The translations under genes were made by a program, and so were the position numbers. Shown one piece after another: positions 1 through 22,057 of a DNA stretch of 64,000 nucleotides. The stretch comes from Phycisphaerae bacterium. GTDB lineage: Bacteria; Planctomycetota; Phycisphaerae; Sedimentisphaerales; Anaerobacaceae. Each line of letters starts with the position of its first letter. Position 1 is the first letter of the stretch. The DNA lies in the NCBI GenBank assembly GCA_030601745.1, contig JAUWBI010000002.1:16770-80769 (forward strand), in the 5' to 3' direction. The notes beneath the pieces were generated by a model that was not told the origin of the DNA, ran no database searches, and saw nothing but the letters and a program-made list of their open reading frames with translations.

Positions 1-2083
1 ACCGGATCCGGGCCAGATGAGCCAGACCATCATCGGTGAGCTGGGAGTGTGCGATATCCAGTTTCTTCAGCGAGCGCAGCTTCTTCAGGTGGGTGATGCC
101 AGCGTCGGTGATGTTTTCGTTCCAGTGGAGACTGAGGCGTTCGAGGTTGGGAACGTCTGATAGGTGAACCAGCGCCGCGTCGGTCAGTTGAGTCAGACCG
201 CCGAGCTGGAGGATTCTGAGTGAAGGGATATTCTTCAGGTGGACCATACCGGCGTCGGTGAAGTTCTTGCCCCAAAGCAGAAGGTACCTGAGCGAAGGTA
301 ATCGCGCCAGATGAGCCAGGCCCGCATTGCTAATACGGCCGCCGCCGAGCTCCAGCTCCTCAAGTGACGCCAACCGCCCAAGATGAGCTAAGCCGGCATT
401 AGTCAGGCGGTTTTCCTGCAGGTACAATCCCTTCAGTGACGGCAACCGGGCTACCTCAGCCAGGCCTTCATCTGTCAGCCGCTTCGATAGGGATAATCGC
501 TCCAGCGAATCGAGGCCCTTGATAAATCCCATGCCTTTGGCCGAGATATTTGTGTTCACGAGGTGCAAGACCTTCAGGCCTGTCAAATGGGCGATATGGG
601 GCATGCATCTGTCGTCGGGCAACTGGCCTCCGTCGTATGGATCGCTGATGCTTAGCATATAAAGGTCGTCGGGCTTGAGATTTGAAAGAGGCGAAAGGTC
701 TCGCCAAGCATCCTGACTTACGTAAAGGGCCAGGCGTTTGCCAGCCGGGACGGTGACGCTGCCCTGAGCCTGACCAAGGTATTTCAGGTCTGAATCCCCC
801 GTTTGCGTCCAGTAGAAAAACGTCTCGATGCGTCTTTCTGTTTTCGCGTCCTGAATCATTAGCTTGCCCAGGGAGCGATCCGGGGGGAAGTGAACAACGC
901 GCTCTTTGCTGCGAGGCGCAGTAACTTTCGCCTGTTGTTCTGCATATTTGCGAAGCAATTCCCACGCGCTCGGACGCTTTCGGACAGCAGATTTGGGCTT
1001 GGACTCGGCAGAGCCGCTTGCTTTCTTTGGCCTGCAGTCCATAATCACACGGCCTTTTTCGTCCACCACTTTGCCATCCTGCCAGGTGTACATAATGCCT
1101 TCGACACCTATAACAAAAACCCTTGCTCCATTCATAATGTCGTCAGGAACAAACGAACCCAGCGCATCATGGTCAACGTCGAGCTTTACCTCAGTGCGTT
1201 TCACATGAGTTCGGGACTTGCTGTAATCCTTACCACCCAAATCTCTATGATATCTTGCATCTGCTTCCATCGGAACCCAGAGGCCATTGATTTTTTCGAA
1301 ACGAACGATTCTTTGAGAAATATGAATTGTGTGTTCCCTGTGGAGCGGACGACCGTAGACCAGGTCGCCCCTTTTTCCGTTTATCTCATGGTTGAATCTG
1401 GCAATATTATATCCGTGTTTAGGGTCGATCCACACCGCGAGGTTTCCGAGTTTTGTAATTGCGTCTATAACATAACACTCTGAATCACCTACTTTCTCCG
1501 TCCTGTCCCGGACCGATATAGTATGAGCTTTGCGTAACTCTGAGTCTATGCGCTCGATGCTACCAAGGATAGAGCCTCTTAACGAACCTGCTTTGCTATA
1601 CAGTCGTTTAATTTTGACGTCTCTATCCTTATTTTTGGTAAGGTGGACTTTGCCAAGATTGCTGACCGGATTAAACGGGTTTCTTGCATACTGGTAGAGA
1701 TCTTTGCCATCCCACATGTAGCTTTGATAGGCAGGATTGTCTTTTGGATAATTGTCCGATGGGCTGCCCACATTACCCCACATGGATCTACGTGTTCTAA
1801 ACCGTTCGGTTTTGCCATCGAATCGAAATTCCTCGGCTTGTTTCGTGTGCAGCACTATCCCTGCCTGGTCAGGCTTGCTGCTACTCGATTCAATCGATAT
1901 TTCATGCTTAATTATGAAAGATTGATAAATCTCATCCTGTGTTTCTGCGTACTTATCCAGCAATTCAAACGCAGTGGGATGCTTCGATTTGCCCTTGCTG
2001 TGCGGGGTCCTTGCCCAACAGACCGGCACCATAACTGCACAAATCAGCGCTACAATTAGGGTTGTTCGCTTAGCGTTCCGCAT
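1..2083 (-). CDS. Secreted leucine-rich-repeat (LRR) protein, C-terminus cut by window edge
   Basis: Absent from the ORF track because no stop lies in the window. Manual minus-strand translation from ATG at 2083 (AAGGAGG 5 nt upstream) gives a signal-like MRNAKRTTLIVALICAVMVPVCWA and an open frame down to nt 2. The last ~200 codons are ~24-aa LRR units (...NITDAGITHLKKLRSLKKLDIAHSQLTDDGLAHLA...). Confidence 0.8.
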   Translation of the reverse strand, partial: MRNAKRTTLIVALICAVMVPVCWARTPHSKGKSKHPTAFELLDKYAETQDEIYQSFIIKHEISIESSSSKPDQAGIVLHTKQAEEFRFDGKTERFRTRRSMWGNVGSPSDNYPKDNPAYQSYMWDGKDLYQYARNPFNPVSNLGKVHLTKNKDRDVKIKRLYSKAGSLRGSILGSIERIDSELRKAHTISVRDRTEKVGDSECYVIDAITKLGNLAVWIDPKHGYNIARFNHEINGKRGDLVYGRPLHREHTIHISQRIVRFEKINGLWVPMEADARYHRDLGGKDYSKSRTHVKRTEVKLDVDHDALGSFVPDDIMNGARVFVIGVEGIMYTWQDGKVVDEKGRVIMDCRPKKASGSAESKPKSAVRKRPSAWELLRKYAEQQAKVTAPRSKERVVHFPPDRSLGKLMIQDAKTERRIETFFYWTQTGDSDLKYLGQAQGSVTVPAGKRLALYVSQDAWRDLSPLSNLKPDDLYMLSISDPYDGGQLPDDRCMPHIAHLTGLKVLHLVNTNISAKGMGFIKGLDSLERLSLSKRLTDEGLAEVARLPSLKGLYLQENRLTNAGLAHLGRLASLEELELGGGRISNAGLAHLARLPSLRYLLLWGKNFTDAGMVHLKNIPSLRILQLGGLTQLTDAALVHLSDVPNLERLSLHWNENITDAGITHLKKLRSLKKLDIAHSQLTDDGLAHLARIR

Positions 2084-2194
2084 GGCCGCCTCCTTATATG
2101 ACGGTTACAGTGTTTAAACAAAAACCAGGCCGGCACCTCAAATCGGTCACGGCCTGTTCTCGGGCGAATTATCATCTGGACTATTGGGTTCTTC
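2037..2194. repeat. Copy A of a ~158-bp duplicated junction (3' end of CDS + terminator + RBS + first codons of LRR gene)
   Basis: Aligns base for base with 3523-3680, with roughly 16 mismatches by eye and no gaps. Identity was not computed. Confidence 0.85.
2116..2156 (-). terminator. Intrinsic-terminator-like hairpin overlapping the stop codon of the sigma-fusion gene
   Basis: Minus strand reads CAGGCCG-(17 nt loop containing the TGA stop)-CGGCCTG followed by GTTTTTGTTT. Confidence 0.45.
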
Positions 2195-3388
2195 TGGTTC
2201 CTTGGCTCGGTAAGCGCCGCCATAGCCACCGCCATAATAGCCGCCATAGCCCATAGCAGGTGTGTTACTATCCTCGCTGTCAGTTTCTTTATCAGGCGCC
2301 GGCGGGCCGCCTACGAAGGCACCTCCATAACCGCCGCCGGCGGGCTGCCTACGAAGACGCCTGGGCTGCTCGGGACCGCGCGGCTCAGAAACAGGTCTGT
2401 CGGGAGGCGCAGCGGCCATATTCTCGGCCAACATCATTTCCATCATCATTTCCCACTCCAACCGGTCCGCTTCCTCTGCCGTTCGGGCTTTGCGGGCGGT
2501 TGGCCGGCTCTGTACGGTGCCTGGCGGTCTTCCCGACGGACGTTGCCTGAATTGCTGAGTACTATGCTGTCCTGGAGGTTGCTTAACCTCGGGCGGCTGG
2601 GTAACGTGGTTATACGTGACTACTGAGGCGACACCCACCACCGTTACCACAGCAGCGGTGACGACCTTCGCCTTGACCCCGGCCAGCACGCCGACCGCCG
2701 CCTTGGCCCCTGTGCCTGAGGTTGCTGCAGCGCTGCCGACTCCGGACCCCGCCGCTGCCGTTCCCCCCACAAGTGCCATTTTGCCTAATTCTTTCAACAC
2801 CAACGCCGGCGCTGCCTCGACAACATTTTCCCCTAACAGACCACCCAATGTAGCTACGGCAACTATTATCCCCCGCTTTCTTAGTCGCTCTCGTAGTTTC
2901 GCCACCCCGGATTCAATCCGCCGCGAGACGGTCGGCTGCGACACCTCTTTGTCGGCTGCAATATCTGTCATAGACCGACCTTCGAAAAAGTGTTGTATCA
3001 GAATCTCTTGTGTTTGCTCATCGAGTTCGCTCAGCCCTTCATCAACATACCCTGATATATCCTGCCATTTTCTCACCTCTCTGGGCTTATTGGCTGCATA
3101 TTCTGTTTCTTGCCGCCTTATTGAAGAATCCCTGCGAACAACATCAATGGCTCTGCGTGTCGCCACCCTATGCAGCCAGGCCGGTACCGAGCCGGTAATA
3201 TTCCCTGCATTCCGCAATAACAGGAAAAACGTATCCTGCACCGCATCCGCTGCCCTGTCCCTGTCTGCCAGAATCCGCAAACAAGCCCCATATACCAGCC
3301 CCGCGTGCCGCCGAACAACTTCTGAAAACGCTTCCGCATCGCCGGTCCTGGCAAACCGATGTAACAAAATAACTTCGTTCTCCAACAT
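2147..3388 (-). CDS. ECF (sigma-70 family) sigma factor fused to a transmembrane/Ala-Gly-rich segment, a Pro-rich linker and a Gly/Tyr-rich C-terminal tail
   Basis: 413-aa ORF with AAGGAG 7 nt upstream. Region 2 (LLHRFARTGDAEAFSEVVRRHAGLVYGACLRIL..DAVQDTF) and region 4 (LDEQTQEILIQHFFEGRSMTDIAADKEVSQPTVSRRIESGVAKLRERL) are recognisable. Hydrophobic stretches follow at about aa 185-260. The tail is ...GYGGYYGGGYGGAYRAKEPEEPNSPDDNSPENRP. Confidence 0.85.
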   Translation of the reverse strand: MLENEVILLHRFARTGDAEAFSEVVRRHAGLVYGACLRILADRDRAADAVQDTFFLLLRNAGNITGSVPAWLHRVATRRAIDVVRRDSSIRRQETEYAANKPREVRKWQDISGYVDEGLSELDEQTQEILIQHFFEGRSMTDIAADKEVSQPTVSRRIESGVAKLRERLRKRGIIVAVATLGGLLGENVVEAAPALVLKELGKMALVGGTAAAGSGVGSAAATSGTGAKAAVGVLAGVKAKVVTAAVVTVVGVASVVTYNHVTQPPEVKQPPGQHSTQQFRQRPSGRPPGTVQSRPTARKARTAEEADRLEWEMMMEMMLAENMAAAPPDRPVSEPRGPEQPRRLRRQPAGGGYGGAFVGGPPAPDKETDSEDSNTPAMGYGGYYGGGYGGAYRAKEPEEPNSPDDNSPENRP

Positions 3389-3485
3389 CTTATATCTCCT
3401 TTCAGTATTCGACTTTTTTAATCACTCATAAATAAGTCGTTCTGAAGCTGGAGATTATTCAGAAAATTACTCCCCTGCCTGTTTT

Positions 3486-3569
3486 TTATTTATTAACGGC
3501 CCCTTCCTCCGGCACAAAACCCGCACAAATCAGCGTTATAATCAGGATTGGTCGCTTAGCGCTCCGCAT
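3486..3569 (-). pseudogene. 27-codon remnant copy of the 5' end of the LRR gene
   Basis: The minus strand has ATG at 3569 behind the same AAGGAGG and encodes MRSAKRPILIITLICAGFVPEEGAVNK*. Compare MRNAKRTTLIVALICAVMVPVCWA at 2083. It lies inside repeat copy B. Confidence 0.55.
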
Positions 3570-3680
3570 CGCCGCCTCCTTATATAACGGTCACGGCGTT
3601 TAAACAAAAACCAGGCCGGCACTTCAAATCGGTCACGGTCTGTTCTCGGGCGAATTAGCATCCGGACTATTGGGGTCTTC
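3523..3680. repeat. Copy B of the ~158-bp duplicated junction
   Basis: See copy A. It covers the last codons of the 2571-aa gene (…PNSPDANSPENRP*), the hairpin, the RBS and the remnant start. Confidence 0.85.
3602..3642 (-). terminator. Intrinsic-terminator-like hairpin overlapping the stop of the giant BlaR1-like gene
   Basis: Paralogous to 2116-2156, with one stem mismatch, and followed by the same GTTTTTGTTT on the minus strand. Confidence 0.4.
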
Positions 3681-6600
3681 CATTTCCTCGGGCAGGATAC
3701 CACCGTAGCCACCGTAGCCACCGTAACCGCCACGATAGCTGCCGCCAAAACCGCCGTAACCACCATAGCCGCCCCTATACGTTGGAAGGTCTTCGGAATC
3801 AACTTTTTCGGCTTTGATTAGAACAAGAAGTTCCTTCTGCACCTTCCGGCCATCTTCTTCGGCTGTAACTTTCTGACCGCCCATGAGCACCGTTCCCCCG
3901 TTGGGGACTAAGACACGCGTCTTGGCACTAACTACTTCCATCTGGGGAATCTTGTACGGGTATTTTTCCTTGTACATACGCTCTTCAAACCCAAGCAGGT
4001 CAGAAAGCTCAAACCCGACATTCAGTAGTATGTGTCTGTTGTCAGGCGTGATTTTGGGCGTCACTTGGAGCTGAAGGCCTTTGTTTACGGAATCGCGCTC
4101 TGGTATTGGCTCGCCGGAAGGCCGATTCGGTTCACTATAGCCTGAGATATAGTTGACTTGTCTATGAATACTGAAAGCTGCTTCTTGGCCATCCAATACT
4201 GTTACTTTTGGTGCAGCAAGCATTTTGGAATCCTCATGAGCCTGGACAGCTTTGATGAGGAAGCTGACGTGGAGATCATCAAGTATAAGGCTATAACTTT
4301 CAGAAATCGGCAAAGCTGGAGACTCCGCAACAAGATGTTCTGACCAGACATCATCGCTTTGTATAGAATTTGCATCCAGACCGACATCTTCAAGGAAACC
4401 TTCGCTAACTACTAAAAACCGTGATTCGATTTGGATTGTACGTTTGCTGATGCCGAGCTTTTCAAGCTGTTTAGAACTCTTAAAAGTGACGTGGCTATCA
4501 TTGAATAAAACGTTGGTACCTTCTCCTTTCTCAAGCAGTGTCTTGTCATAAGCTATCACGGTGTCTGGTGGTTCTACTACTGTTTTTCCTCTGCCAAGGT
4601 ACACAACATTTTCCAATAACCATTTTAAATCGTCCTCGCTCATATCGTTTATATGCTTTTGTAGTTTCTGCAAAGTATCCGGATATTTTTCTTCGTGGTC
4701 ATTTGCATATATAAGCAGCGCGTTGCCTAATTCTTTTAACTTCTCTGCTGATTCGAGGCGGTCTTTCACTTCGGTCTTAGCCGGCAAAATCTCTATCTCA
4801 ACCGGATTGCTCACTACCCGAAGAGAAATCGTTCTGCCTTCTTGCGACAGTCCTCTCGAAAGAGCCGCACGCACAGTGTGCCAGCCCGGCGCTAACTCAA
4901 AACCTCCATTCTCATTTTGAGAACCAAGAGCCATGTCCAATGATAGCTCAAGGTTATACCATCGCTTATCCGGGCCAAATGACATGCCTTTGGCGCCACC
5001 CAGCATAGGAATCGTAACCCTATACCACACTCCGTTCACTTCAACCCCCCAATAGTCCGGTGCAGAAGTTAATAGCAGTCTGTGACTGCCGTCGTTGCGG
5101 ACATCCACCTTGAACTTCGGCGTCTCGCCGGCCGCCCACTTCCCCTTCTCCGCACGCAAACGAACTCTAATCCCCTCCGCCGCCTGACCCCAAAGCAAAT
5201 CGGCATCCGGCTTAGGATCAGGCCCCATCCTCATGATTACCGGAATGGCAACCTTCTGATTTCTCCGATAGGCCCTGGCGGCGGCAATGAGCTCCTCGGC
5301 CGCCTCTTCGCTGTGCAGGTATTTCATTACAAGTTCACGCAGTTCATCGAAGGCATCCGGCTCCCGCGCATATAACTGAACAATCTGTCCGGTCAGAGCC
5401 TGCCGATGCTCTACGAGTTCGCCGATGCGCTCGGCATGTCTTCTCACAACCATTTCTTGCTCATTTTCTTTGCGGTACTTTTCCACCACTTCCGGCGGAC
5501 CGTCAACCGTGGACACGCCGACGGCAGGTAGCTCCGGCTTGTCCTTCGGCAAACCAAATTGCAAACAGAACTCAAGCCCCCGCAGATAAATCTTCGCTGC
5601 GTCGCGCCTGCCTTTCGATAATTGAAGCGCATCACCCCAATAAACGAACAGGCGCGCCTTCTTGACGGCGTCGTGAAGATACCACCATCCCGCCCGAGCA
5701 TATTCTATCGTTTTGCTCGGATTGATTTGCCCGCTCTGGGCATATATCTCGGCAAGCTGACAATATATCAGTGCCTGCTCCTCGCGTTCAGTGTACTTCT
5801 CGAGCAACCTCTTGCCGAAAGCCTCGGCGCCGGCAAGGTCCTGTCGCTGCTGCCAGAGCTCATGAAGCTCGGCCTGCAGGGAAGTCGAAGCGTCAGCTTC
5901 GACGTCAACGGTGTCCGCTTTTTCGCCATCCGGCAAAACCTCTACCACAACCACATTGCTTTCAATACGCAAGTGCTTGGGAATCGGTATTGTCCCCGGC
6001 ACGGCCTCCGGAGGTACGGGGTCTGATACGAACATAACCAGTTGAACGGCATGCTTGCCAAGTGACAGCTTCAGCCGAAGGTCAGAACCGTATGCGCCAA
6101 CCCAGTCTTCGCTCAGAAGTATAGTGGTTTTATCCAAGGCCTCGCGCGGCTCAAGGTCGGCCGGCCTGTCAGAAACCGGTCCCTTCCAACGCCAAATTTT
6201 ACCCGCCACCTTGAGGTAGAAAAGCTCCGATGGCCGGGGCAGGCGCCACGGGCCCCGACCGACATTTCTTGCTACCGCTTGGAGCCTCGGCGTTTCGTCC
6301 GCTTTCCAGAGGCGTTTATCGGCTCGCAAGCCACATTGCAGACCAGCCACCGCCTCGCCCCAGCCCCTCTTGTCCGCCTCAGCAGGCAAAACCTCTATCA
6401 CAACCGCGTTGCTTACCACGCGAAGTCGCCGCCAGTTAGCTCGGTCCCTCGTGCTTGGGCCAAAGGACAAACGTACCGTATGCAACCCCGGCGTGAACTT
6501 CAGAGGTCTGCCATTACTGTTCCACTCCGACCATACTCCCGGATAAAACTCAATGTCCTTATGTTCCTGACCCGGACCGAACAGCAGCGTTCGAAAGTAA

Positions 6601-9600
6601 CCCGAAAACAAAGCTCCAACCCTGTGCCACAGGCCGTCAAGTTCAACCTCCCAGTGTTCGTGCGTCAAACCCAATTCCCATTCGACAGTCCCTTTATTTC
6701 GCATGTCAACACGGAATCTGGGCGTTTCACCTTCATACCACCTCTGCCGCTCGGGTCGTACCCGCATCTGAACCCCCTCCACCGCCTCTCCCCAGACAAG
6801 CGGTATTTTCTCATCCGGCGTTTCAACCTCAACCTGCACATCGGTTTTGACCGGAGGCATGCCTTTTCGCAGGTCCTCTACAAATGACCGCACCTGTTCT
6901 TTGGTAAGGTCTCCCGCGATAATTGCCTTTTTACTCAGCGGCGTCTCAATGACAGGAGCCGAGAGAACCCAGCTATCAACACCTATCGCCAGATGATTAC
7001 CAATATTGGCCTTGGTCAATTCGTAGAAAAGCTCAGCCCCTTTTTCATCGAATTGAAGGCTTATCGCTGGTCTCCCCGCTGCATCAGTAGTGGGCTGGAC
7101 TTTTTCAAGCCCCCAGACCCATCTCCCTTCAAACTCAGGGATCATTACGTATTGAGTGCGTGCACAGAGCAGAATATAGGTTCGTTCTTTATAAGTACTC
7201 AAAGGTAAACCTCTGAACCGATTAAGGCCGCCTTTTATGGGCGACCATTGGAAGCTATCCCCACGAATTGATCCTCGCAAAGGCCCGTTTTCTGCCAAAT
7301 CATCAAGATATCGTTGATATTCTTCCGTGGTCAGACTCGGCTGACGGCCCGACCCATCTGCGTTGGGTACTATGGCCAACGTTAGCATTGCCCCTTCCGG
7401 CGCAGCCAAAACCCTATATTCACGTTTCTTACCTGCCTTCTGAACTGGTACTTGTGTTGGCTGAGTCTGCGGCAAATCAGGCGGTTTAATCTTGCCTTGA
7501 TTTTCCTGCCACCACTGCCGCCAGCGCTGGGCGACCTGGCGCCTGTGTTCCCTTTGCCTGTCCCTTATTTCCGGGGTTATGATGTGAGACCCCAGTCGGT
7601 TGCCTTTCGAATCATAGGCATAGAAATGGTCATGCCCTTCGGTATGGCCGGTGAGTTTTTCCAGAGCTATTGTGATTTCACGAACTGGCCTGCCCAAACC
7701 TAAACCTTCTTTAGCGGGGTCCATTTGATGCCGTTTGAAGAATATATCAAGTTCGGTCTTTGGCTCACCAATGCCATAATCGCTGGAAAAGCCGCTACGT
7801 TCAAGGCTGTCAATCAAACCTGGGACGGCGCTGAGGTCACCGATTGCTCTTAGCGTTAAAGCCAATTTGCTTTGAGTCTGTGGTTTCCCGGTTCGCCTTA
7901 GTTCGGCAACCAGTTCCGGTACCGCGGCAGAGCCGATTTCAACAAGCCTGTGAACGGCTGCGAACCACTTTTTCTTGTCTCTGCCGATGCTCGATTTGCG
8001 AAGAATATCAATAAGCTCACTTACCGAAAGCCCCGCCATTTGCTCTATCAACTCAGCGTCAGAAAGGCCGGCGTCCTGTTCGGACGGCTCACCGACCACG
8101 TATCTTTTGCTGGTAAACTCATCATAGACTTCGCAGCCGTCGGGGAATACTATGGTGAATCTTTCCGCAGGGATGCCTTTATTAAGCCTTATGCTCTCAA
8201 CGTCAATCTCCAATCTGCGTGTCGGCACCATTGGTGTTAGCTTGAAAACGCCCACTTGCTCTCGTTCCTCAGTAGGCAGCGCCGCGAACTGCGCCCGCGT
8301 CATCCCCTTGGGTGGACGGATGACGTTTGTGGAGAAGGATGTACGGTCACCTTGGATTGGCAACCAAATCCCATCGATCTTTTTTAACTTGATGTTGTCC
8401 ACTTGCCTCGAGACTACCTTGAAGCGGTTTTTGCCGCTGATGCTACGATATTTCTCGAACTTAAGGAGCCTGTAGTCCCTCTGGTAATCTATCCATGCTC
8501 GAACATCGTAAGCCCAGTCCACCGAAGGGTCGGTTTCCAAATTAATGGCCTCGATGACATAACAAGGATGGCCGTCGATGAATTCAACCTTATCTCTTAC
8601 CGAAATAGACTCTGCCTGAGCTATCGCCTCTGCAAAAGACAGGCGACCGAGCTCTTTTGCGTCGAAGCCCAGGAGGGTATTGAATGTCATCATGCCTCTG
8701 AAGGTCGTGTAATCGGGTTCGAGTATCCCACCACCCGGTCGCTGAGCATCCGGGTCAACTCTCAAGAGCCATCGTTTTTCACCGTCAAAGGCCTGTGTTA
8801 TCTTTACGGTCTCATAGGTCTCGGTCCGGGAATCTCTCAAATGTTTTATGCCGCTGTAGAATTCCTTGCCGTGCTCGTAGCCCCAATCGAATTCATAGAA
8901 GGTATGATTGCGCGCCGGAATTGTGCATGTCATATGGAGCTGGATATCCTTTATCTTTTTCTCACTTTCGATTATTTTAGCCACCAGTTCGCTAGCGGAT
9001 ATCTGCACATCAGTTTTATTCTCAGAAGGAACCTTCTTTGCTTCAGGATGCTCTTTCAGAAACTGCTTCAGCTCTACCTCGGCCCTATCAGGCGTCTCCA
9101 TATCTATATCATGTACCCACCAGTTGTCGCGCCCATTCAGAACTATCCTATCCAGACAAAACACCAGCGGGCCCATCCTGCTGTGATCACCCTGGATGAC
9201 CGAACTTACCGCCATTGCCGACCAATCGTCGGCAACAACAGCCATTATCCACAGGTTCTGACCTTCCGCCATTTCGTTAAGGTCCATTATGTGGTCAGCA
9301 GATAACTTGTCCGGAGGGGCAAATTCTGAGGCCTTTTCAAAATCACCCGCCAGCGCCGCCGCAACAAACGTCTCAATCGCCTCACGAGCACCCCGCTTGA
9401 CTTTGTCTGCCTTCTCAATCTCTTTGACATCGGATAATCCCTCCAGTTCCATGGCCAAATACTTCTGTAGCTTCTCCTGGTACTTCAGTTGCTTTTCCAT
9501 GCCCAATTTAAAAATTCCCTTCGGCAAAGCCGACCGATCATTAAAGCTGCACCGCTCGATATCCAACGCATAATGACTATGATTATATACTCGCCCATCC

Positions 9601-11348
9601 GTTATGGTGAAAGACTTGAAATCAATCTCAACAGGGAACCATCCGCCGGATATTACCTCCAACATCTTGACCGTATGTTTCAGACGCGGGCTGCCGTCCG
9701 GATTGTACCATTCTTCATTCACCAGCCCGTAACCTTTGGATGGGTCATAGTCTCTGATGCTATAGGCTCCGTAGTCACGGGCCGTTTCATTCATGTTCCT
9801 GGTCATGACCCTTATGAGCTTAACGCCGTTGGCGTCAACCACCGACCAATCTTTCGTGATATGCTTCAGATTGTTCAGTCCAAGAATCAATTTGTCTAGT
9901 GACCCATCCCCCCTCCAGCGCGTAACAGGCCCAAGCCAATTCTCATGATAATTAAACCTTGGCTTCCTTGATAGGAGACTCCCGTCATACGAATTACCGC
10001 CTTGCTGCTTGTCAACCCAGAACCGACCGGTGGGATCTGTGTAGACCTGGTCCTGTATATATTTGGTCGCAATCTTTTTACCGTCCCACCAAAGCTTGTA
10101 TTGACCTGCGAGCTCCCTCCTGGGGTCATTGCTGTCGGAATAACGATCATTCACACTCTTTCTGCTCCAGGCCAGAACGCCGCACTCAAACTTGTCCCGG
10201 TTTTCACGAAATCCTTGAATCAATTTGGCCTCAAGCTCATTTGGTACCGTTTTAGACCAACTGTTCAAGGCAAGAGTTGTTGGTATGACGAAGGCCAATA
10301 TCAATAGGATAGCAATCACAGACGGTATCCAGCTAACACGACTGGCATTGGCGGACTCTTTGCCAACCAAACGGCAGATGCGTGCTAATAAACTACCTCC
10401 TGTTGCTGCTACTGCTAATTCGCCCTGGCGACTTCGCACTTCTTCCAGCGAAGTTAGGGCCCTTGCATAACGCACTCTGTCGCCGGATACTCTCACCGCC
10501 AGATCATCGCAGCAGTTCTCTCTTTCAACGCGAATCTTGCGCGAAACCCACCACACAGCCGGGTGATAGAAGCCGAGTATCTCCACCACCGTTTGCAGCA
10601 TATTGACGAAATAGTCATACCTGCGGATATGAGCTAATTCATGTGCGAGTATGGCCTCTAATTGTTCGGTACTTAGGCCGGTTAAGGCACTGGCCGGCAA
10701 GAGTATCACCGGCCGCAGCCAGCCGACAACTGTGGGCACCCGAACAAGCGCGGACTCCATAAGCTGCACGATCCGACGAATTCCCAACAACTTGGCTAAT
10801 TCTTTGAGCTTACTTTGCCAGGGCGGGCCTATTTGCTTGACCATTCTGCGTCTTAATCTCTGCATCTGAGTCCAGCCACCCAGGTGCCATAGAGAAAGCC
10901 CAAATACTCCGACCAGCCATCCTGAAACGATGTAGGGCAAGGCTGGTTCAAGTAATTCGACGGTGCGCTGTTTCCAGGAAACTTTGGGTGTTATGGCAAC
11001 GTTTTCAACAAGCTGCACCGGTTTTTCCAACACCGGCATTTCCGCCACAGGCACTTGCTTTGTTTCTTCCATCGGCAAAACTGAAGGTACAGGTGCGGGT
11101 TCAACAAGGGCTGTCGGATACGATGCTGAAATCGGAACCAAGTGAAGGGTTACAACAGGCAATAGAACAATCAGCCCCAAGGTCAAGCACGCAAGTACAT
11201 AACGCAGGTTAGCTGCGGATTTTCGCAACACTCTCAGCAGGACTGATAGAAGCAATGCCGCCACCGCTGCTTGCCAGACAAAATGCAGCAGTGTCCATCC
11301 CAATTTTTGAACAATTTCCTGTGAAAGAATATCTTCCAACGCCATCAT
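3633..11348 (-). CDS. Giant (2571 aa) BlaR1/MecR1-type M56 peptidase signal transducer with multidomain extracytoplasmic region and C-terminal secretin domain
   Basis: Single ORF. The N-terminus has TM segments and AHELAHIRRYDY (HELAH codons at nt 10629-10643). Further along are a SecD-head-like ...LAIGVDSWVLSAPVIETPL..., HEAT-like repeats and three ~137-aa repeats starting WG(E/Q)A. A secretin-like region (nt ~3810-4440) reads ...MLAAPKVTVLDGQEAAFSI...LQLQVTPKITPDNRHILLNV...TRVLVPNGGTVLMGGQK. The gene ends in a GYGG-rich tail. Confidence 0.9.
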   Translation of the reverse strand: MMALEDILSQEIVQKLGWTLLHFVWQAAVAALLLSVLLRVLRKSAANLRYVLACLTLGLIVLLPVVTLHLVPISASYPTALVEPAPVPSVLPMEETKQVPVAEMPVLEKPVQLVENVAITPKVSWKQRTVELLEPALPYIVSGWLVGVFGLSLWHLGGWTQMQRLRRRMVKQIGPPWQSKLKELAKLLGIRRIVQLMESALVRVPTVVGWLRPVILLPASALTGLSTEQLEAILAHELAHIRRYDYFVNMLQTVVEILGFYHPAVWWVSRKIRVERENCCDDLAVRVSGDRVRYARALTSLEEVRSRQGELAVAATGGSLLARICRLVGKESANASRVSWIPSVIAILLILAFVIPTTLALNSWSKTVPNELEAKLIQGFRENRDKFECGVLAWSRKSVNDRYSDSNDPRRELAGQYKLWWDGKKIATKYIQDQVYTDPTGRFWVDKQQGGNSYDGSLLSRKPRFNYHENWLGPVTRWRGDGSLDKLILGLNNLKHITKDWSVVDANGVKLIRVMTRNMNETARDYGAYSIRDYDPSKGYGLVNEEWYNPDGSPRLKHTVKMLEVISGGWFPVEIDFKSFTITDGRVYNHSHYALDIERCSFNDRSALPKGIFKLGMEKQLKYQEKLQKYLAMELEGLSDVKEIEKADKVKRGAREAIETFVAAALAGDFEKASEFAPPDKLSADHIMDLNEMAEGQNLWIMAVVADDWSAMAVSSVIQGDHSRMGPLVFCLDRIVLNGRDNWWVHDIDMETPDRAEVELKQFLKEHPEAKKVPSENKTDVQISASELVAKIIESEKKIKDIQLHMTCTIPARNHTFYEFDWGYEHGKEFYSGIKHLRDSRTETYETVKITQAFDGEKRWLLRVDPDAQRPGGGILEPDYTTFRGMMTFNTLLGFDAKELGRLSFAEAIAQAESISVRDKVEFIDGHPCYVIEAINLETDPSVDWAYDVRAWIDYQRDYRLLKFEKYRSISGKNRFKVVSRQVDNIKLKKIDGIWLPIQGDRTSFSTNVIRPPKGMTRAQFAALPTEEREQVGVFKLTPMVPTRRLEIDVESIRLNKGIPAERFTIVFPDGCEVYDEFTSKRYVVGEPSEQDAGLSDAELIEQMAGLSVSELIDILRKSSIGRDKKKWFAAVHRLVEIGSAAVPELVAELRRTGKPQTQSKLALTLRAIGDLSAVPGLIDSLERSGFSSDYGIGEPKTELDIFFKRHQMDPAKEGLGLGRPVREITIALEKLTGHTEGHDHFYAYDSKGNRLGSHIITPEIRDRQREHRRQVAQRWRQWWQENQGKIKPPDLPQTQPTQVPVQKAGKKREYRVLAAPEGAMLTLAIVPNADGSGRQPSLTTEEYQRYLDDLAENGPLRGSIRGDSFQWSPIKGGLNRFRGLPLSTYKERTYILLCARTQYVMIPEFEGRWVWGLEKVQPTTDAAGRPAISLQFDEKGAELFYELTKANIGNHLAIGVDSWVLSAPVIETPLSKKAIIAGDLTKEQVRSFVEDLRKGMPPVKTDVQVEVETPDEKIPLVWGEAVEGVQMRVRPERQRWYEGETPRFRVDMRNKGTVEWELGLTHEHWEVELDGLWHRVGALFSGYFRTLLFGPGQEHKDIEFYPGVWSEWNSNGRPLKFTPGLHTVRLSFGPSTRDRANWRRLRVVSNAVVIEVLPAEADKRGWGEAVAGLQCGLRADKRLWKADETPRLQAVARNVGRGPWRLPRPSELFYLKVAGKIWRWKGPVSDRPADLEPREALDKTTILLSEDWVGAYGSDLRLKLSLGKHAVQLVMFVSDPVPPEAVPGTIPIPKHLRIESNVVVVEVLPDGEKADTVDVEADASTSLQAELHELWQQRQDLAGAEAFGKRLLEKYTEREEQALIYCQLAEIYAQSGQINPSKTIEYARAGWWYLHDAVKKARLFVYWGDALQLSKGRRDAAKIYLRGLEFCLQFGLPKDKPELPAVGVSTVDGPPEVVEKYRKENEQEMVVRRHAERIGELVEHRQALTGQIVQLYAREPDAFDELRELVMKYLHSEEAAEELIAAARAYRRNQKVAIPVIMRMGPDPKPDADLLWGQAAEGIRVRLRAEKGKWAAGETPKFKVDVRNDGSHRLLLTSAPDYWGVEVNGVWYRVTIPMLGGAKGMSFGPDKRWYNLELSLDMALGSQNENGGFELAPGWHTVRAALSRGLSQEGRTISLRVVSNPVEIEILPAKTEVKDRLESAEKLKELGNALLIYANDHEEKYPDTLQKLQKHINDMSEDDLKWLLENVVYLGRGKTVVEPPDTVIAYDKTLLEKGEGTNVLFNDSHVTFKSSKQLEKLGISKRTIQIESRFLVVSEGFLEDVGLDANSIQSDDVWSEHLVAESPALPISESYSLILDDLHVSFLIKAVQAHEDSKMLAAPKVTVLDGQEAAFSIHRQVNYISGYSEPNRPSGEPIPERDSVNKGLQLQVTPKITPDNRHILLNVGFELSDLLGFEERMYKEKYPYKIPQMEVVSAKTRVLVPNGGTVLMGGQKVTAEEDGRKVQKELLVLIKAEKVDSEDLPTYRGGYGGYGGFGGSYRGGYGGYGGYGGILPEEMEDPNSPDANSPENRP

Positions 11349-11350
11349 GA

Positions 11351-11740
11351 TTATTTTCCCTCGAATTCATCGAGCATCTTTCTTATTCTCGCAAGCTCTT
11401 TTGCGGAGACCTTCCTGGTTGAAAGTGCTCTCATAACCAGTTTTTCTGCTGAGCCGGAAAACGCTCTTTCGAGCAAATCCCCTACTAATTGCTTTTGAGT
11501 TCTCTCCTCTGACATCGCGGGCTTATAGATATGCTTCCACTGAGATTCATCTCTGACCAAAAGCCTTTTTTCAGTCATGATTTGCATAAGTTTGAGCGTG
11601 GTAGTGTACCCGGTAGCCCTGTCTTTGTTCATCGCTTCGTTGACCTGGCGAACGGTACTTGGGCCCAGATCCCATAGAATTCTTAGGATTGTTAGTTCTC
11701 TATCTGTCGGCTGTGGAACCTTTTTTCTCACCATATTCAT
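11351..11740 (-). CDS. BlaI/MecI/CopY-family transcriptional repressor
   Basis: 129 aa. The sequence ...LTILRILWDLGPSTVRQVNEAMNKDRATGYTTTLKLMQIMTEKRLLVRD... is the typical winged-helix penicillinase-repressor fold. The stop lies 2 nt before the start of the M56 gene. Confidence 0.9.
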   Translation of the reverse strand: MNMVRKKVPQPTDRELTILRILWDLGPSTVRQVNEAMNKDRATGYTTTLKLMQIMTEKRLLVRDESQWKHIYKPAMSEERTQKQLVGDLLERAFSGSAEKLVMRALSTRKVSAKELARIRKMLDEFEGK

Positions 11741-11785
11741 TCCCTTTCAGAACTATTTATTTCTATTATCTACAACCTAAAGCAT

Positions 11786-11833
11786 ATACGAACCGCTTCG
11801 TATCTTCAAGCAAAAAAACGAAAGAATTCGTAT
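11786..11833. promoter_or_regulatory. Two palindromic operator candidates upstream of the BlaI-like gene
   Basis: ATACGAA-CCGC-TTCGTAT (11786-11803) and AAACGAA-AGAA-TTCGTAT (11816-11833). Their centres are 30 bp apart, 46-93 bp upstream of the start codon at 11740. Confidence 0.5.
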
Positions 11834-11999
11834 TTTTTGAAAAATTTTTCTTACCCTTTGTTTTTGCCCTAAAAACGCACAAAAAGACTGAGTCAAATCA
11901 GCCCGGCTGAATTTGTTTTCTGCTAACCGCACGGCTGTAATACCTGAGGACAAGACGCATGCCGTTTTTGGTCACGACTAATACACTGAGAATCGCAAA

Positions 12000-13100
12000 T
12001 CAAAGACCTCTGCCCTTAACCTGCACGTCAGATTCTTGAGTATTGCTCGCTGAATCCGGAGGTAGACTTTCAGCATTTGATGATGAATTGAAGTCTGCTC
12101 GGGCTCTCTGGCCTTCTCTATTGCCAGCCTCGTCACAAGCCGTCGGTTTTAGGTAAAGGAGGTTGTTTTCAAAGTCAAAAGTTATCATTCTAAACAGTGT
12201 CACGAATTTAATCCCCAGAATCGAGCGGCGCCTCTTCTCAAACCAAAGATTAGGAAGGTCAATGCCAGGCAACGATGCTTGGCTGACCAATACTACCTCT
12301 GTTTCCTCCAGGTCTTCAGGCCTGCTCTCAATACCCTGTTCGCGAGCGAGTGCTTCCATTTCCTGCTTGCTATAATGATAATAATCAATTGTGTCGGAGC
12401 CTTTCAATTTGTCGAAAGTGCTTTCACGTAGCCGGTTATGAGCGCCAAGTCCAGTATCAACTAAGAACAATTCAGCAATATTCTCAGCTAAAGTTAAGTT
12501 GATTTGCGGAAAACCAAATTCAGCTTCTATTATTGGAACAGGATGTCCCCACTTTTGTCTGAGGTCGTCTGTGTTTTGTGAAGCGGTCTTGCGCCATCTC
12601 AGAAGCCGCACGCGCTTATTCTCCAAATCAAACTGTAAAACCTTATCGTGCAGAGTATTCATTCCAATTATACCGTCATAGTTGTGATCTGGAGGCAGGC
12701 CACCCTTACGCAAGTCCAAACAAGCAATCGTGCCTCGCAAACGTAAGGAGCCTATTTCGAATCGCTTGGGAAATTCATAGAACTCGACGTCTATTTGTAT
12801 CTCTCTTGGTGTAATAGGGCGTTTCCCCCTTTTAATGAAATCACCTAATAACGATTTTAGCCTGCTATCGACGGCTGTGTTGCCGCCTGCAGTATCTATG
12901 ATAAATCGGTACTCCTGCGAATTAATAGTTACCGGAATCACAACATAGTGTGAATCCTCCAGCATAGGTAGGTCTGCAAGCATAACCGTACTTGACTTTT
13001 CTTCTTTAGAGCAAGAGCATCCTTCGATTGACAATATGGCTGCTCCCAGGAACAGTAGGCCCAGCAGTAGTGTCTTACATTTACTGTTTCTGAATATCAT
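12000..13100 (-). CDS. Lipoprotein with two retropepsin-like (clan AA) aspartic protease domains
   Basis: The ORF track gives 12000-13265. The internal ATG at 13100 (GGTGGAG upstream) yields a lipoprotein signal, MIFRNSKCKTLLLGLLFLGAAILSIEGC. There are two protease motifs, FIIDTAGGNTAV and LFLVDTGLGAHN. Confidence 0.7.
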   Translation of the reverse strand: MIFRNSKCKTLLLGLLFLGAAILSIEGCSCSKEEKSSTVMLADLPMLEDSHYVVIPVTINSQEYRFIIDTAGGNTAVDSRLKSLLGDFIKRGKRPITPREIQIDVEFYEFPKRFEIGSLRLRGTIACLDLRKGGLPPDHNYDGIIGMNTLHDKVLQFDLENKRVRLLRWRKTASQNTDDLRQKWGHPVPIIEAEFGFPQINLTLAENIAELFLVDTGLGAHNRLRESTFDKLKGSDTIDYYHYSKQEMEALAREQGIESRPEDLEETEVVLVSQASLPGIDLPNLWFEKRRRSILGIKFVTLFRMITFDFENNLLYLKPTACDEAGNREGQRARADFNSSSNAESLPPDSASNTQESDVQVKGRGL

Positions 13101-13336
13101 TGCTCCACCTGTTTCTTCCACAATAATATCAAAATCTTCTTCAAATTGCAACCATCTGAAGTCTTTGGACCAATAAGCCTGACCCCAAACCACTCCGGCT
13201 GGGTTTGTTTTCCTTTTGACCTCGCGGCTGTAATACATAAGGCCGAACCAAACCAGCCCGGCCATGTAGTATTCTATTCTACCAAATGTTGCTTAATGCC
13301 TCTGAGGGATGCAAAATCGTTTCCTCTATAGCATAA

Positions 13337-14791
13337 TTAATATTGGTCTTTTTTCAATTGTTCCAATGCTATGTTGATACTCTGCATAAATTCCGTTTCC
13401 GACACATCATTAAATGGCTTAATTTGGTAATGCAATTCAGTGTCAGCGACGCATAAATATACTTTCGTGATAGGATTGAACATTTCTGCTTCTGAGTAAG
13501 CGTAAGAAATCATTGTGTTTACCTGTGTTAGCTTGTCAGGCAACGACAAGGTCACCATCGGTTTGAATTCCCTATTTTCAGGCTTGCCTTGCTCAATGCG
13601 CTGTTTTTTAAGTTTATCGCGACTAAACACCACAACACCAAGATCCAGTTCACTACTCCCCCTGGACCACGTCTCTCTCGGCACTAATATCCATGATTTA
13701 GCTTCAATACCATTGTATCTCATTTGTAAAAGCCTGCATTTCTTATATGGAAAACAAATCTTGCCATCCGATATCGAGAACAGCTCCATATTTCCATGAA
13801 CCTTCTCTCCGTGGTTTAACTGAATAGCCCCAAATTGCTGGATGCTTTCTTCTAAAGGTCGAAGCGAGCATGAAACATATATCAGGTCGTCTTCGCTTCG
13901 CTCGAGCCTGTGAACTGCAAATACCAGTCCCATTATTTTTCTGGTAAAGATCGCATTATCCAGCCCAAGTCGTTCGCTTAAGATCTGGTCCGCGTCTACA
14001 ATTTTTACATTGGGGCCAAAATCCGCGGAAAACACAGATTGGTCAATTGACATATTATATTCAATGCTGCCTTTCTTAGAAGGTTTCCATCGTCCGTTGT
14101 CATCACGACAGTTTGATTCCCATGATCGTAAAAACTTTTTCTCTTCAACTTTTTCGACCCATAGGCGCAGGTCCTCTGTGTTTTCAGGATTTGTATAATA
14201 GTACATCTGACATTGAACACCGTCGACAACTTTGTCACCATCTGGATTTCTAACTGATTTACCTTGAGGCCACTTACCAGAGACAAGGTGTCCAATATGG
14301 AACGTAGAACCAATGCTTTTGGACCGCACGACAAAATCGTCGCCCGGAGTGTAGTGCCACAAAAAAACGCCATCATCAATTCTTATATGATATCTGTTAC
14401 TAGGATACCCTACTTCTCTTACCCCTTTTTCACGGTCGTACAACACCTCATAATACGTTTCCCATTTTCCATCCTGATAAATCTTGACAACATTATATAT
14501 TGTACGAGCGCTTTCAAGCCCTCTCATAACCTGCGAATGCAGTGTTGACTGGCCGTTTCCAAAGAAAACAAACAACCCAATTATGCCAATAGTGATGACC
14601 GCAACTCCACTAACTTTTGTTATTCTGCTTTTCATAATTATTCTCCATATATTCGGCTGAATTGCAGCCGAATTCTTCTTATATTTTTTAAATGCAAGGA
14701 AAGCATCCCTTATCATCTCATCATCCACTTCTGAGCTGACCGTGACATTTGATTTAACGAATAACCTTTTTATCTTTTCCGTTGGCCTCAT
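13337..14791 (-). CDS. Putative anti-sigma factor (single-pass membrane protein) cognate to the upstream ECF sigma
   Basis: 484 aa. It has a 4-nt ATGA overlap with the sigma gene. The layout is a short cytoplasmic N-terminus, one TM (VSGVAVITIGIIGLFVFF) and a large extracytoplasmic domain with no family I recognise. Confidence 0.6.
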   Translation of the reverse strand: MRPTEKIKRLFVKSNVTVSSEVDDEMIRDAFLAFKKYKKNSAAIQPNIWRIIMKSRITKVSGVAVITIGIIGLFVFFGNGQSTLHSQVMRGLESARTIYNVVKIYQDGKWETYYEVLYDREKGVREVGYPSNRYHIRIDDGVFLWHYTPGDDFVVRSKSIGSTFHIGHLVSGKWPQGKSVRNPDGDKVVDGVQCQMYYYTNPENTEDLRLWVEKVEEKKFLRSWESNCRDDNGRWKPSKKGSIEYNMSIDQSVFSADFGPNVKIVDADQILSERLGLDNAIFTRKIMGLVFAVHRLERSEDDLIYVSCSLRPLEESIQQFGAIQLNHGEKVHGNMELFSISDGKICFPYKKCRLLQMRYNGIEAKSWILVPRETWSRGSSELDLGVVVFSRDKLKKQRIEQGKPENREFKPMVTLSLPDKLTQVNTMISYAYSEAEMFNPITKVYLCVADTELHYQIKPFNDVSETEFMQSINIALEQLKKDQY

Positions 14792-15327
14792 TTTTGTACC
14801 TCACTATCTAAGATTGACCGCAGTTTACCAATTCCATACCTGTATCGACCCTTAACTGTATTGACAGAGATGCCCAAGGATTTAGCAATAGCTCTAAACC
14901 GCATTTGACCGTAAATATACAACACAATCACTTCCCTTTGCTCATGTGGCAATGTGGCTAATGCTGAACTTAACTGCTGTAACTCTTCGTTGCACACGAT
15001 GGCGCGACTTGGTTCGCTCAAATCTAACGGAGCTGAGCAATTTTGAGTCAGAGGAACCGCTCGGTTTTGCTGTGTCCGCATCTGATCCCGGACCCGGTTG
15101 GCAACGCATGTCGCTAAGTAAGCTTTAAGACTGCCGGTCAGTTCAAATTTCTCCAACCTTTCGACAAAAGTAACGAAAGCATTATGAACAGCATCCTCAG
15201 CAACGTTCACATTACCCGAAAGTGCAATAGCTAAGATCAGCAAACCATCTCTGTACTTTTCATAGATGCGGCGCAAAGCATCCCTGCTTCCCTGTTTAGA
15301 CCTCATCACAAGTAGCCTGTCTTCCAT
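14788..15327 (-). CDS. ECF-type RNA polymerase sigma factor (sigma-70 family)
   Basis: 179 aa. Region 2 (ALRRIYEKYRDGLLILAIALSGNVNVAEDAVHNAFVTF) and region 4 (LPHEQREVIVLYIYGQMRFRAIAKSLGISVNTVKGRYRYGIGKLRSIL) are present. Confidence 0.9.
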   Translation of the reverse strand: MEDRLLVMRSKQGSRDALRRIYEKYRDGLLILAIALSGNVNVAEDAVHNAFVTFVERLEKFELTGSLKAYLATCVANRVRDQMRTQQNRAVPLTQNCSAPLDLSEPSRAIVCNEELQQLSSALATLPHEQREVIVLYIYGQMRFRAIAKSLGISVNTVKGRYRYGIGKLRSILDSEVQK

Positions 15328-15811: not shown

Positions 15812-15841
15812 TTGACTATTCTTGAAGCAAAACCGTAGAAT
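15812..15841 (+). promoter_or_regulatory. Candidate sigma-70-type promoter for the NUDIX-4TM gene
   Basis: TTGACT (15812-15817), an 18-nt spacer, then TAGAAT (15836-15841), about 110 nt upstream of the ATG at 15950. Confidence 0.35.
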
Positions 15842-15949
15842 ACGTTTGGTTGAAATGGCGGACATGAAGAACTGCCCGAATCAAACATTGAAAACCCTTG
15901 GCTTACTCATATGTGTACGCCCAAGCAGAACTAAAGAGAAGGAAACATA

Positions 15950-22031: not shown

Positions 22032-22057
22032 ATAGTAAGCAAAATGTTGGTGTGGCT

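Follow-up and report, generated by a model that had tools for sequence, protein, structure and literature searches.

The closest described relatives of the gene pair analyzed here are the BlaR1/MecR1-BlaI/MecI systems of Staphylococcus and Bacillus licheniformis, in which a four-transmembrane M56 transducer with a cytoplasmic HExxH loop is likewise encoded next to a BlaI-family repressor. So far, transducers of the BlaR1 type have been understood solely in their role as antibiotic sensors, and secretins solely as separate outer-membrane pores that belong to secretion and pilus machines. The pair described here lies on the minus strand of a 64-kb stretch of DNA (64,000 nucleotides of contig JAUWBI010000002.1, Phycisphaerae bacterium, assembly GCA_030601745.1), referred to below as the window, and consists of a BlaI/MecI-family repressor gene followed by a single 2571-codon open reading frame (ORF) whose product begins like BlaR1 and ends in a secretin-type core. 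We interpret the pair as an autoregulated BlaI/BlaR1-type proteolytic switch in which a giant periplasmic arm, built from cassettes and with a ring-forming secretin-type end, takes the place of the penicillin sensor, an interpretation for which we consider the scales to stand about level.

The repressor and the M56 transducer resemble BlaI and BlaR1

The large ORF contains zero internal stops, and its full-length product would be ~285 kDa. An identical protein is present in NCBI on a 93,983-bp contig (P0001 in the sample of 239 collected proteins, P0001 to P0239). The ATG of the large ORF lies only 2 nt past the stop codon of the repressor gene, and both genes are on the same strand (Table 1). 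The repressor was assigned to the Penicillinase_R family (PF03965, E = 4.8e-25, 88.6 bits versus a cut-off of 22.6), and the nearest solved structures were M. tuberculosis BlaI (2g9w, E = 3.9e-9) and S. aureus BlaI (1sd4, E = 8e-4). Its 129-aa sequence has zero cysteines, and the Cys-rich metal site found at the C terminus of CopY-type repressors was not detected in it; therefore, it is not a CopY-type metal sensor. These results bear out the original prediction, made from the letters of the window without database searches, of an uninterrupted 2571-aa reading frame that starts 2 nt after a gene of the BlaI/MecI/CopY type.

The large protein begins with a Peptidase_M56 domain (PF05569 at aa 24-309, E = 2.2e-31, 109.6 bits versus a cut-off of 31). 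Four hydrophobic segments were recognized, at about aa 18-40, 48-70, 136-154, and 340-362, with the HExxH motif between the third and the fourth; the first and third transmembrane (TM) segments, TM1 and TM3, are each followed by basic residues. Past aa 370 the hydropathy scan detected nothing TM-like, and mean hydropathy never exceeded 1.35. The HELAH motif, found at exactly the nucleotides originally given for it, and the ERENCCD block that follows it align with the HEYAH and NEVEAD zinc-site blocks of S. aureus BlaR1 (8exs). The active site of the BlaR1 metalloprotease faces the cytoplasm (PMC9834060). Because the hydropathy pattern of the window protein is that of BlaR1, its protease loop is presumably also cytoplasmic, an orientation that would leave aa 365-2571 outside the inner membrane.

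A penicillin-binding (class D beta-lactamase-like) sensor domain, whose absence had also been proposed, gave no Pfam or NCBIfam match in the large protein. The NCBIfam model blaR1_generic reached 89 bits against a cut-off of 400 and was matched at model positions 25-324 of 585 only, the N-terminal half. These observations support the view that the penicillin sensor has been exchanged for a ~2200-aa extracytoplasmic chain with a terminal secretin-fold domain.

The C-terminal secretin core lacks a conserved block

Pfam Secretin (PF00263) matched aa 2367-2493 with an E value of 2.3e-15 (57.1 bits versus a cut-off of 27.5), although over profile positions 1-123 of 169 only. A profile was made from an alignment (A1) of the C-terminal ~380 residues of the window protein with 27 homologous modules; it found the solved secretin cores of GspD, PilQ, InvG, pIV, and RcpA, with E values from 1e-28 (GspD) to 3e-11. 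In the AlphaFold model of the secretin end (pLDDT, 80.7), long beta-hairpins are visible, and all 36 significant Foldseek matches in the PDB were secretins, with probabilities of 0.99-1.00. Pfam, the PDB profile, and the predicted fold agree, and together they show that the C-terminal ~210 residues adopt a secretin double-barrel fold. The secretin domain that had been called at nt ~3810-4440 is thus recovered by each approach, and the fear that the region might yield no significant secretin-family match proved groundless. The lip region (aa 2330-2348) is short and was modeled with low confidence.

The core of the window protein has a 25-residue gap in A1, at a position where most relatives read VPxLGDLPLIGxLFR, and this block aligns with KVPLLGDIPILGHLFKS of GspD. 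The amphipathic helical loop (AHL) is the most conserved sequence of secretins and is central to membrane association and to insertion that does not depend on the beta-barrel assembly machinery (PMC6155069, PMC6532946); it has been described as "essential for secretin membrane insertion" (PMC8134430). Because of the alignment to GspD and the papers that name the AHL as the most conserved motif, we infer that the deleted block is the AHL; in the window protein, the number of AHL match columns filled is 0 of 15. The Pfam scan also found neither Secretin_N (PF03958) nor N0/STN (PF07660) in the window protein, although many paralogs have them. Since both the AHL block and the N-domains are missing, it is doubtful that the window protein forms a conventional outer-membrane pore. 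The original prediction had reasoned from the secretin to an envelope-spanning protein with an outer-membrane channel; the fold on which that argument was built stands, and the channel fits poorly with the missing AHL and N-domains and the low-confidence lip.

M56-secretin proteins form a large family

The fusion is widespread in sequence databases yet unstudied. A database search with the window protein returned 878 relatives; among the top 120 of them, the majority have both PF05569 and PF00263, and frequent additional domains are Secretin_N, STN, carboxypeptidase-regulatory, LRR, HEAT, ankyrin, and redoxin. A profile search of 1.84 billion representatives gave 635 clusters at E <= 1e-30. 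JGI automatic names already pair the two halves ([quoted passage not shown]), and no paper on an M56-secretin fusion was found in literature searches. The earlier remark that no characterized BlaR1 has this architecture therefore holds for the literature, but the architecture itself is not an oddity, as at least 132 database proteins combine M56 with a secretin module.

An M56 domain was present in 173 of the 239 collected proteins, and 132 of these 173 also have at least one full secretin core. The 132 proteins come mostly from Sedimentisphaerales/Phycisphaerae metagenome-assembled genomes (MAGs); some fusion proteins are encoded on contigs of 0.38-6.5 Mb, and one is from a named species, Anaerobaca lacustris (P0096). 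The HExxH motif is intact in 170 of the 173 M56 domains, which argues for a conserved catalytic function. The secretin module is also found by itself behind a signal peptide (P0224, P0142, and P0218 are examples).

With the M56 domain as the single query, 80 related loci (L001-L080) were retrieved from representative genomes, with 10 kb on either side of each. The closest genomes were Sedimentisphaerales MAGs, in which the M56 domain is 69% identical. The secretin fusion was confined to the 21 closest loci (L001-L021), labeled mostly Sedimentisphaerales, Phycisphaerae, and Phycisphaerales, with several Pirellulales, Planctomycetaceae, and plain Planctomycetota; BlaI-M56 pairs without a secretin reach Acidobacteriota and other Planctomycetota.

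The M56 domain and the last ~330 residues of the window protein are conserved among relatives, and the middle is variable. Cassettes from the middle, in blocks of 300-700 residues, recur in P0002, P0004, and P0029 at 65-74% identity and in a different order, and G+C content within the large ORF spans 0.45 to 0.58. The reordered blocks and the uneven G+C content indicate that cassettes are probably being actively shuffled among paralogs. P0005 aligns collinearly with the window protein in three segments, aa 1-783, 1498-1853, and 2193-2499.

The AHL was scored in 242 secretin cores by occupancy of the match columns of a hidden Markov model; a strict regular expression undercounted it. It was kept in 127 cores, deleted in 92, and intermediate in 23. 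In M56 proteins with multiple cores, deleted cores (D) come first and an AHL-bearing core (P) comes last (DP, 25 proteins; DDP, 7; DIDP, 1). A sole AHL-less core, as in the window protein, was found in 24 proteins, and two such cores were found in 6. Because the D-before-P order is so regular, it suggests that AHL-less cores may be a functional class positioned beneath a membrane-inserting core. The pattern further suggests stacked rings, of which the outermost alone would insert into the membrane. A rule that AHL-less terminal cores always have Gly/Pro-rich tails was dropped, as it was true in about half of 19.

A conserved palindrome is predicted to be the BlaI operator

Two boxes of the 6-4-6 form are present in the 259-bp gap upstream of the BlaI gene, 47-92 nt from its ATG. 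They were the only 2 matches in the 64-kb window, in which 0.12 would be expected, and no further box was found there. Among the 80 related loci the exact palindrome TACGAA-N4-TTCGTA occurred at 58, with 61 sites versus 0.07 expected. Of the 61 perfect sites, 55 are 0-120 nt ahead of the BlaI start as inferred, and at 58 a second box is located no more than 70 nt away. A dual predicted operator of this sequence, ~40-60 nt upstream of BlaI, is common to the Planctomycetota and Acidobacteriota pairs. Other BlaI-M56 pairs in the loci, including a tandem second pair (L010), have TACAGT/TACTGT, TACGAT, and TACGAC half-sites, which we take to resemble the TACA/TGTA-type operators of known BlaI-family regulators.

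The conservation of the palindrome upstream of BlaI supports an autoregulated switch. Because no further box was detected in the window, the regulon visible there is the BlaI-M56 pair itself. Experiments with the BlaI regulators of Clostridium thermocellum have shown that two inverted repeats are bound and that their own operon alone is controlled (PMC8457756). If many paralogs of one genome have identical predicted operators, they would be expected to cross-regulate each other.

Other modules of the extracytoplasmic chain

Between the transducer and the secretin core, the chain is made up of modules that were recognized with very different confidence (Table 1). The SecDF P1-head-like domain scored above the Pfam cut-off (PF22599, E = 2.7e-14, 53.5 bits versus 27) and was also matched by the secD model TIGR01129 (E = 2.3e-11). 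The likeness to SecD is limited to the P1-head domain; the TM segments of SecD are lacking. The three WG(E/Q)A repeats, each of ~140 aa and starting at about aa 1517-1519, 1661-1663, and 2051-2053, were compared with MAFFT and pairwise BLASTP and are related to each other: the first and third are 38% identical (E = 4e-31), and the first and second match with E = 2e-09. Both the SecD-like segment and the three repeats had been pointed out in the original prediction, and both calls were substantiated.

Three other labels that it had attached to the chain are weakly supported at best. The region named LolA/RseB-like matched LolA_like (PF17131) with E = 0.0016 and 18.5 bits, under the cut-off of 30, when the segment was scanned alone. 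The HEAT-like repeats stayed below threshold in profile searches; the homologs P0046 and P0058 bear Pfam HEAT annotations, and P0058 aligns across the HEAT-like region, P0046 just to its start. The stretch described as a pseudopilin tail falls within a ~105-aa domain that directly precedes the secretin core and is present in 0-5 copies per family member. Its model (pLDDT, 88) has a long helix and a small sheet, and it had no Pfam or NCBIfam match, no PDB sequence match, and no significant Foldseek fold match. The sole pilin among its top fold matches was the type IV pilin 6xxd (E = 0.79, probability 0.30, TMq 0.43). The H-X9-DG model TIGR04294 is absent from the window protein, and only the homolog P0098 reached it (19.7 bits versus a cut-off of 19). 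The domain is internal, so that a prepilin leader with an N-terminal hydrophobic helix is not found. The resemblance to pilins is a weak lead and not a finding.

Table 1. Features of the BlaI/M56-secretin locus (coordinates in the window)
Feature	Coordinates	Strand	Evidence
183-nt direct repeat copy (last ORF codons plus ~125 nt downstream); other copy at 2023-2205	3509-3691		
2571-aa ORF for the M56-secretin protein with its modular periplasmic chain	3633-11348	-	ORF translation, Pfam
Gly/Tyr-rich low-complexity tail, aa 2517-2571, ending in EDPNSPDANSPENRP	3636-3800	-	Sequence, comparison
Secretin core, aa 2304-2516; long beta-hairpins, AHL block deleted	3801-4439	-	Pfam, PDB profile, AlphaFold, Foldseek
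Junction K2502/V2503; site of the 25-residue VPxLGDLPLIGxLFR block in relatives	3840-3845	-	Alignment A1
~105-aa helix-plus-small-sheet domain, aa 2195-2300, containing GTNVLFNDSHVTF	4449-4766	-	Directly before secretin core
WG repeat 3, aa 2051-2190	4779-5198	-	MAFFT, pairwise BLASTP
Helical spacer, aa 1815-2045, weakly TPR-like	5214-5906	-	TPR_8, E = 0.03
WG repeat 2, aa 1661-1807	5928-6368	-	MAFFT, pairwise BLASTP
WG repeat 1, aa 1517-1654	6387-6800	-	MAFFT, pairwise BLASTP
SecDF P1-head-like domain, aa 1414-1496	6861-7109	-	PF22599, TIGR01129
HEAT-like helical repeats, aa ~1100-1200	7749-8051	-	HEAT_2, HEAT_PBS, E ~0.1 (sub-threshold)
Beta-rich module, aa 800-1090, weak LolA_like signal	8079-8951	-	Sub-threshold
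Module aa 371-784, fold not assigned	8997-10238	-	Recurs (65% identical) elsewhere in the paralogs P0004 and P0029; no Pfam match
M56/BlaR1 transducer, aa 1-365: TM1, TM2, Pro-rich outer loop, TM3, cytoplasmic zinc-protease loop (predicted), TM4	10254-11348	-	PF05569, hydropathy, alignment to BlaR1 8exs
HELAH zinc-binding motif, aa 236-240; followed by ERENCCD, aa 275-281	10629-10643	-	Hydropathy/motif, alignment
BlaI/MecI-family winged-helix repressor gene, 129 aa	11351-11740	-	PF03965
Proximal operator-like perfect palindrome TACGAA-N4-TTCGTA, TACGAACCGCTTCGTA, 47-62 nt upstream of BlaI ATG	11787-11802		Motif scan
Distal operator-like palindrome AACGAA-N4-TTCGTA, one mismatch to consensus	11817-11832		Motif scan

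The C-terminal tail and the surrounding genes

The Gly/Tyr-rich tail of the window protein also ends the product of the gene at 2147-3388 and two metagenome proteins, an AHL-less secretin-core fragment (P0177) and another M56 protein (P0184), both of which end in PNSPDxxSPENRP. The search returned nothing significant among other proteins for a GY-rich/PNSPDxNSPENRP tail, and there was none in the 80 genome loci. From its sequence the tail is a candidate for a lineage-specific C-terminal tag. A PEP-CTERM reading, prompted by the exosortase gene at 38669-40660, was rejected, as the motif is followed by neither a hydrophobic helix nor a cluster of basic residues.

The end of the large ORF is part of a 183-nt direct repeat, the copies of which are 87% identical and comprise the last ~16 codons (...E[ED]PNSPDxNSPENRP-stop) and ~125 nt after the stop, in one case of the M56-secretin ORF and in the other of the gene that comes next downstream. 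The repeat could reflect recombination between 3' ends, or it could be a shared C-terminal tag plus a downstream element. An AAGGAGG site and the start codon (ATG) of a 27-aa ORF (3486-3569; beginning MRSAKRPILIITLICAG) are found in the downstream part of the repeat. The next gene (2147-3388, minus strand) encodes 413 aa with sigma-70 regions 2 and 4, hydrophobic Ala/Val/Gly-rich stretches, a Pro-rich region, and the Gly/Tyr-rich tail, and its product looks like a membrane-tethered sigma factor. This gene is not counted as part of the unit; among the 80 loci, a comparable one was found directly downstream of an M56-secretin gene only at L021.

Upstream of BlaI are a gene for an extracytoplasmic function (ECF) sigma factor (14788-15327, minus strand) and two unassigned membrane ORFs. 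The sigma gene overlaps by 4 nt a 484-aa ORF (13337-14791) with no Pfam match, and a 421-aa ORF (12000-13265, minus strand), also with no Pfam match, comes next. The region 12000-15327 is probably a separate sigma/anti-sigma unit, and a terminator-like hairpin (11885-11904) is located between it and the BlaI promoter. Farther away, the 721-aa product of 17623-19788 (minus strand) has a Redoxin/AhpC-TSA domain (aa 201-328), a domain type that is also found as a cassette in several M56 relatives, P0076 and P0079 among them. An AbiEii nucleotidyltransferase toxin gene (22693-23541, plus strand) has a 4-nt overlap with a 230-aa ORF with no Pfam match (22004-23541 for the two), which is probably the antitoxin. 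An exopolysaccharide locus occupies 24058-63534 and includes genes for Poly_export, a 1391-aa TPR protein, a Bac_transf priming transferase, an AAA_31 protein, an NTP_transferase-Exosortase_EpsH fusion (38669-40660), several glycosyltransferases, Wzy_C, a pyruvyl transferase, and an Asn_synthase-like protein. No genes of type II or type III secretion systems or of type IV pili (secretion ATPase, platform, pilin) were present among the 30 window ORFs scanned with Pfam, and an Rfam scan of positions 1-16000 matched no family.

Possible mechanism and alternative explanations

In the proposed proteolytic switch, both palindromes would be bound by BlaI dimers, which would keep the operon repressed. 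A change in the arm, caused either by binding of a ligand to a cassette or by assembly or engagement of the C-terminal ring, would be relayed via TM4 to the cytoplasmic zinc protease. The protease would then cleave BlaI, which would derepress the operon and any other promoter with the same box. Because the AHL block and the N-domains are missing, the core would be expected to oligomerize as a periplasmic or outer-membrane-apposed ring, or else to co-assemble or dock with another secretin, and not to form a classical pore. The simplest logic would be feedback on the assembly or engagement of the large protein itself, since the repressor and the large protein are the only products visibly under BlaI control. 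The switch is supported by matches to M56, Secretin, SecDF_P1_head, and Penicillinase_R above curated cut-offs and by the alignment to BlaR1 and the hydropathy pattern. Further support comes from the paired palindromes and the C. thermocellum precedent, from the secretin fold with its missing AHL block, from the HExxH motif intact in 170 of 173 M56 domains, and from the lack of secretion or pilus genes among the window ORFs scanned. It starts from the gene anatomy and the palindromes, which are seen in the DNA, and adds to them a putative BlaI proteolysis, a putative signal, and a putative oligomeric state.

Several points weigh against this interpretation. No signal or ligand can be named for the arm, and the oligomerization and localization of the AHL-less core are predictions. 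The N101/F102 site of S. aureus BlaI corresponds to R/A in the window BlaI (LVMR|ALS versus LVLN|FAK), in which no cleavage site is recognizable; the Asn-Phe scissile bond in the dimerization helix of S. aureus BlaI/MecI is not known to be conserved beyond Firmicutes. No regulated effector gene besides the pair was found in the window, and thus the output may lie elsewhere in the genome or be absent. In most family members the last core has kept the AHL, so that the family may on the whole consist of true outer-membrane secretins, with the window member as an exception or a decaying copy.

This last point also speaks for a tethered trans-envelope conduit, in which a working outer-membrane secretin for secretion or macromolecule uptake would be covalently anchored to the inner membrane and the M56/BlaI pair would merely tune its abundance. 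The confirmed secretin fold, the Secretin_N and STN domains of many relatives, the stand-alone modules with signal peptides, and the conserved helix-plus-sheet domain with its weak pilin-like signal in front of the core all fit with such a conduit. However, the window protein has neither AHL nor N-domains, its lip is short and poorly modeled, no secretion ATPase, platform, or pilin gene was found among the window ORFs scanned, and a catalytic motif preserved in 170 of 173 proteins is hard to explain in a mere anchor, so that we consider a conduit somewhat unlikely. An unlikely but more far-reaching reading is that the family is a trans-envelope machine made of one polypeptide, in which 12-15 chains would form one ring or several stacked rings via their secretin cores, with a matching ring of M56 proteases thereby held in the inner membrane. 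BlaI proteolysis would then report directly whether a giant envelope pore or cage is occupied, gated, or intact. AHL-less cores would be periplasmic and the AHL-bearing core, where there is one, would be in the outer membrane, and the window protein would represent a periplasmic-ring-only subtype. Such structures could relate to the macromolecule-uptake apparatus of Planctomycetota.

Loss of function has to be considered as well. If the window protein were a degenerating or decoy paralog that had lost the AHL and gained a foreign 3' end by recombination, its secretin end would be nonfunctional; the 65-74% identical and reordered cassettes, the 183-nt repeat shared with the next gene, and the range of G+C content inside the ORF could all be explained in this way. 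Yet a 7.7-kb ORF without a stop and with intact catalytic motifs argues for selection, AHL-less cores are recurrent (92 of 242) at regular internal positions (DP and DDP), and the same AHL-less core and tail are seen in the independent metagenome proteins P0177 and P0184, which makes decay improbable in our view. We are even more skeptical of a secretin precursor, from which a periplasmic protease would free the C-terminal module while the M56 part stayed behind as a processing sensor. Long linkers and cassettes do offer many possible cut sites, and stand-alone homologs of the module exist, but no cleavage motif was identified, there is no direct sign of processing, and a freed AHL-less core would still not insert. 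Release by the M56 protease itself, which the original prediction had entertained, is topologically unlikely: a site that faces the cytoplasm, as it does in BlaR1 (PMC9834060), cannot make the cut. Finally, the unusual length and the heterogeneous composition of the ORF, and nothing else, might point to an assembly chimera or to several genes, a concern raised with the original prediction. The 2571 codons have no stop, P0005 is collinear over three blocks, and assemblies from NCBI, JGI, ENA, and Logan that are independent of each other contain 132 proteins in which M56 is joined to a secretin core; because the junction recurs in this way, an artifact is effectively excluded.

Implications

Relative to the original prediction, what is new is that the protein belongs to a family and is not a one-off, that the secretin is incomplete, that the operator is conserved, and that the minor domain calls are weak. 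Through the M56-secretin family, gene expression may be tied to the condition of the cell envelope. The welding of M56 to a secretin behind a conserved, predicted BlaI operator suggests an undescribed coupling, in diderms, of transcription to the state of an assembly that spans the envelope. Cores with and without the AHL provide a natural series for studying the insertion of secretins into membranes. The family seems to be expanded in Sedimentisphaerales and other Phycisphaerae, which are anaerobic polysaccharide degraders, and the shuffled cassettes and the shared operator raise the questions of how specific the many paralogous switches are and whether they cross-talk.

Comparison with known systems

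The window pair has the features of M56/BlaR1 and BlaI membership that were tested, with the exception of the penicillin sensor domain. Like the BlaR1/MecR1 systems, it has palindromic operators, predicted here, at its own promoter, and proteolysis of the repressor would be expected. It differs from them in that ~2200 aa of unrelated modules and a secretin core take the place of the penicillin sensor, the repressor gene comes first, there is no beta-lactamase or PBP2a target gene, and the host is a diderm planctomycete. The PvmSR pair of P. aeruginosa, an atypical BlaIR pair, is similar in that the extracytoplasmic part of its M56 protein is not a penicillin sensor (bioRxiv 10.64898/2026.08.03.742534). 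M56-TonB fusions such as TonB1 and TonB10 of B. thetaiotaomicron, which are uncharacterized according to the authors who describe them (bioRxiv 10.1101/2023.07.07.548152), have at their periplasmic end a domain that normally contacts outer-membrane proteins, so that a protease in the cytoplasm would be coupled to the outer envelope on the same principle. The PvmSR and M56-TonB proteins differ from the window protein in having a few hundred residues and no secretin core, repeated cassettes, or stacked cores.

The C-terminal domain matches secretins in fold and profile and departs from them in the AHL, the N-domains, and the genomic context. As in GspD, PilQ, InvG, and pIV, a homologous core is positioned at the C terminus after periplasmic domains. 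In contrast to those secretins, the window protein has no signal peptide and is anchored by an inner-membrane protease, it has no N0-N3/STN domains, the AHL is deleted, a Gly/Tyr-rich tail stands in place of the S-domain, and no partner genes for secretion or pili are nearby among the window ORFs scanned.

In systems of the FecA-FecR-FecI type, which combine TonB-dependent transducers with anti-sigma and ECF sigma factors, a signal from an outer-membrane beta-barrel is relayed by a protein that spans the periplasm and leads, through regulated proteolysis, to a change in transcription. The M56-secretin protein differs from this arrangement in that a single polypeptide would span the relay, the output would be a BlaI repressor and not a sigma factor, and the barrel would be of the secretin type.

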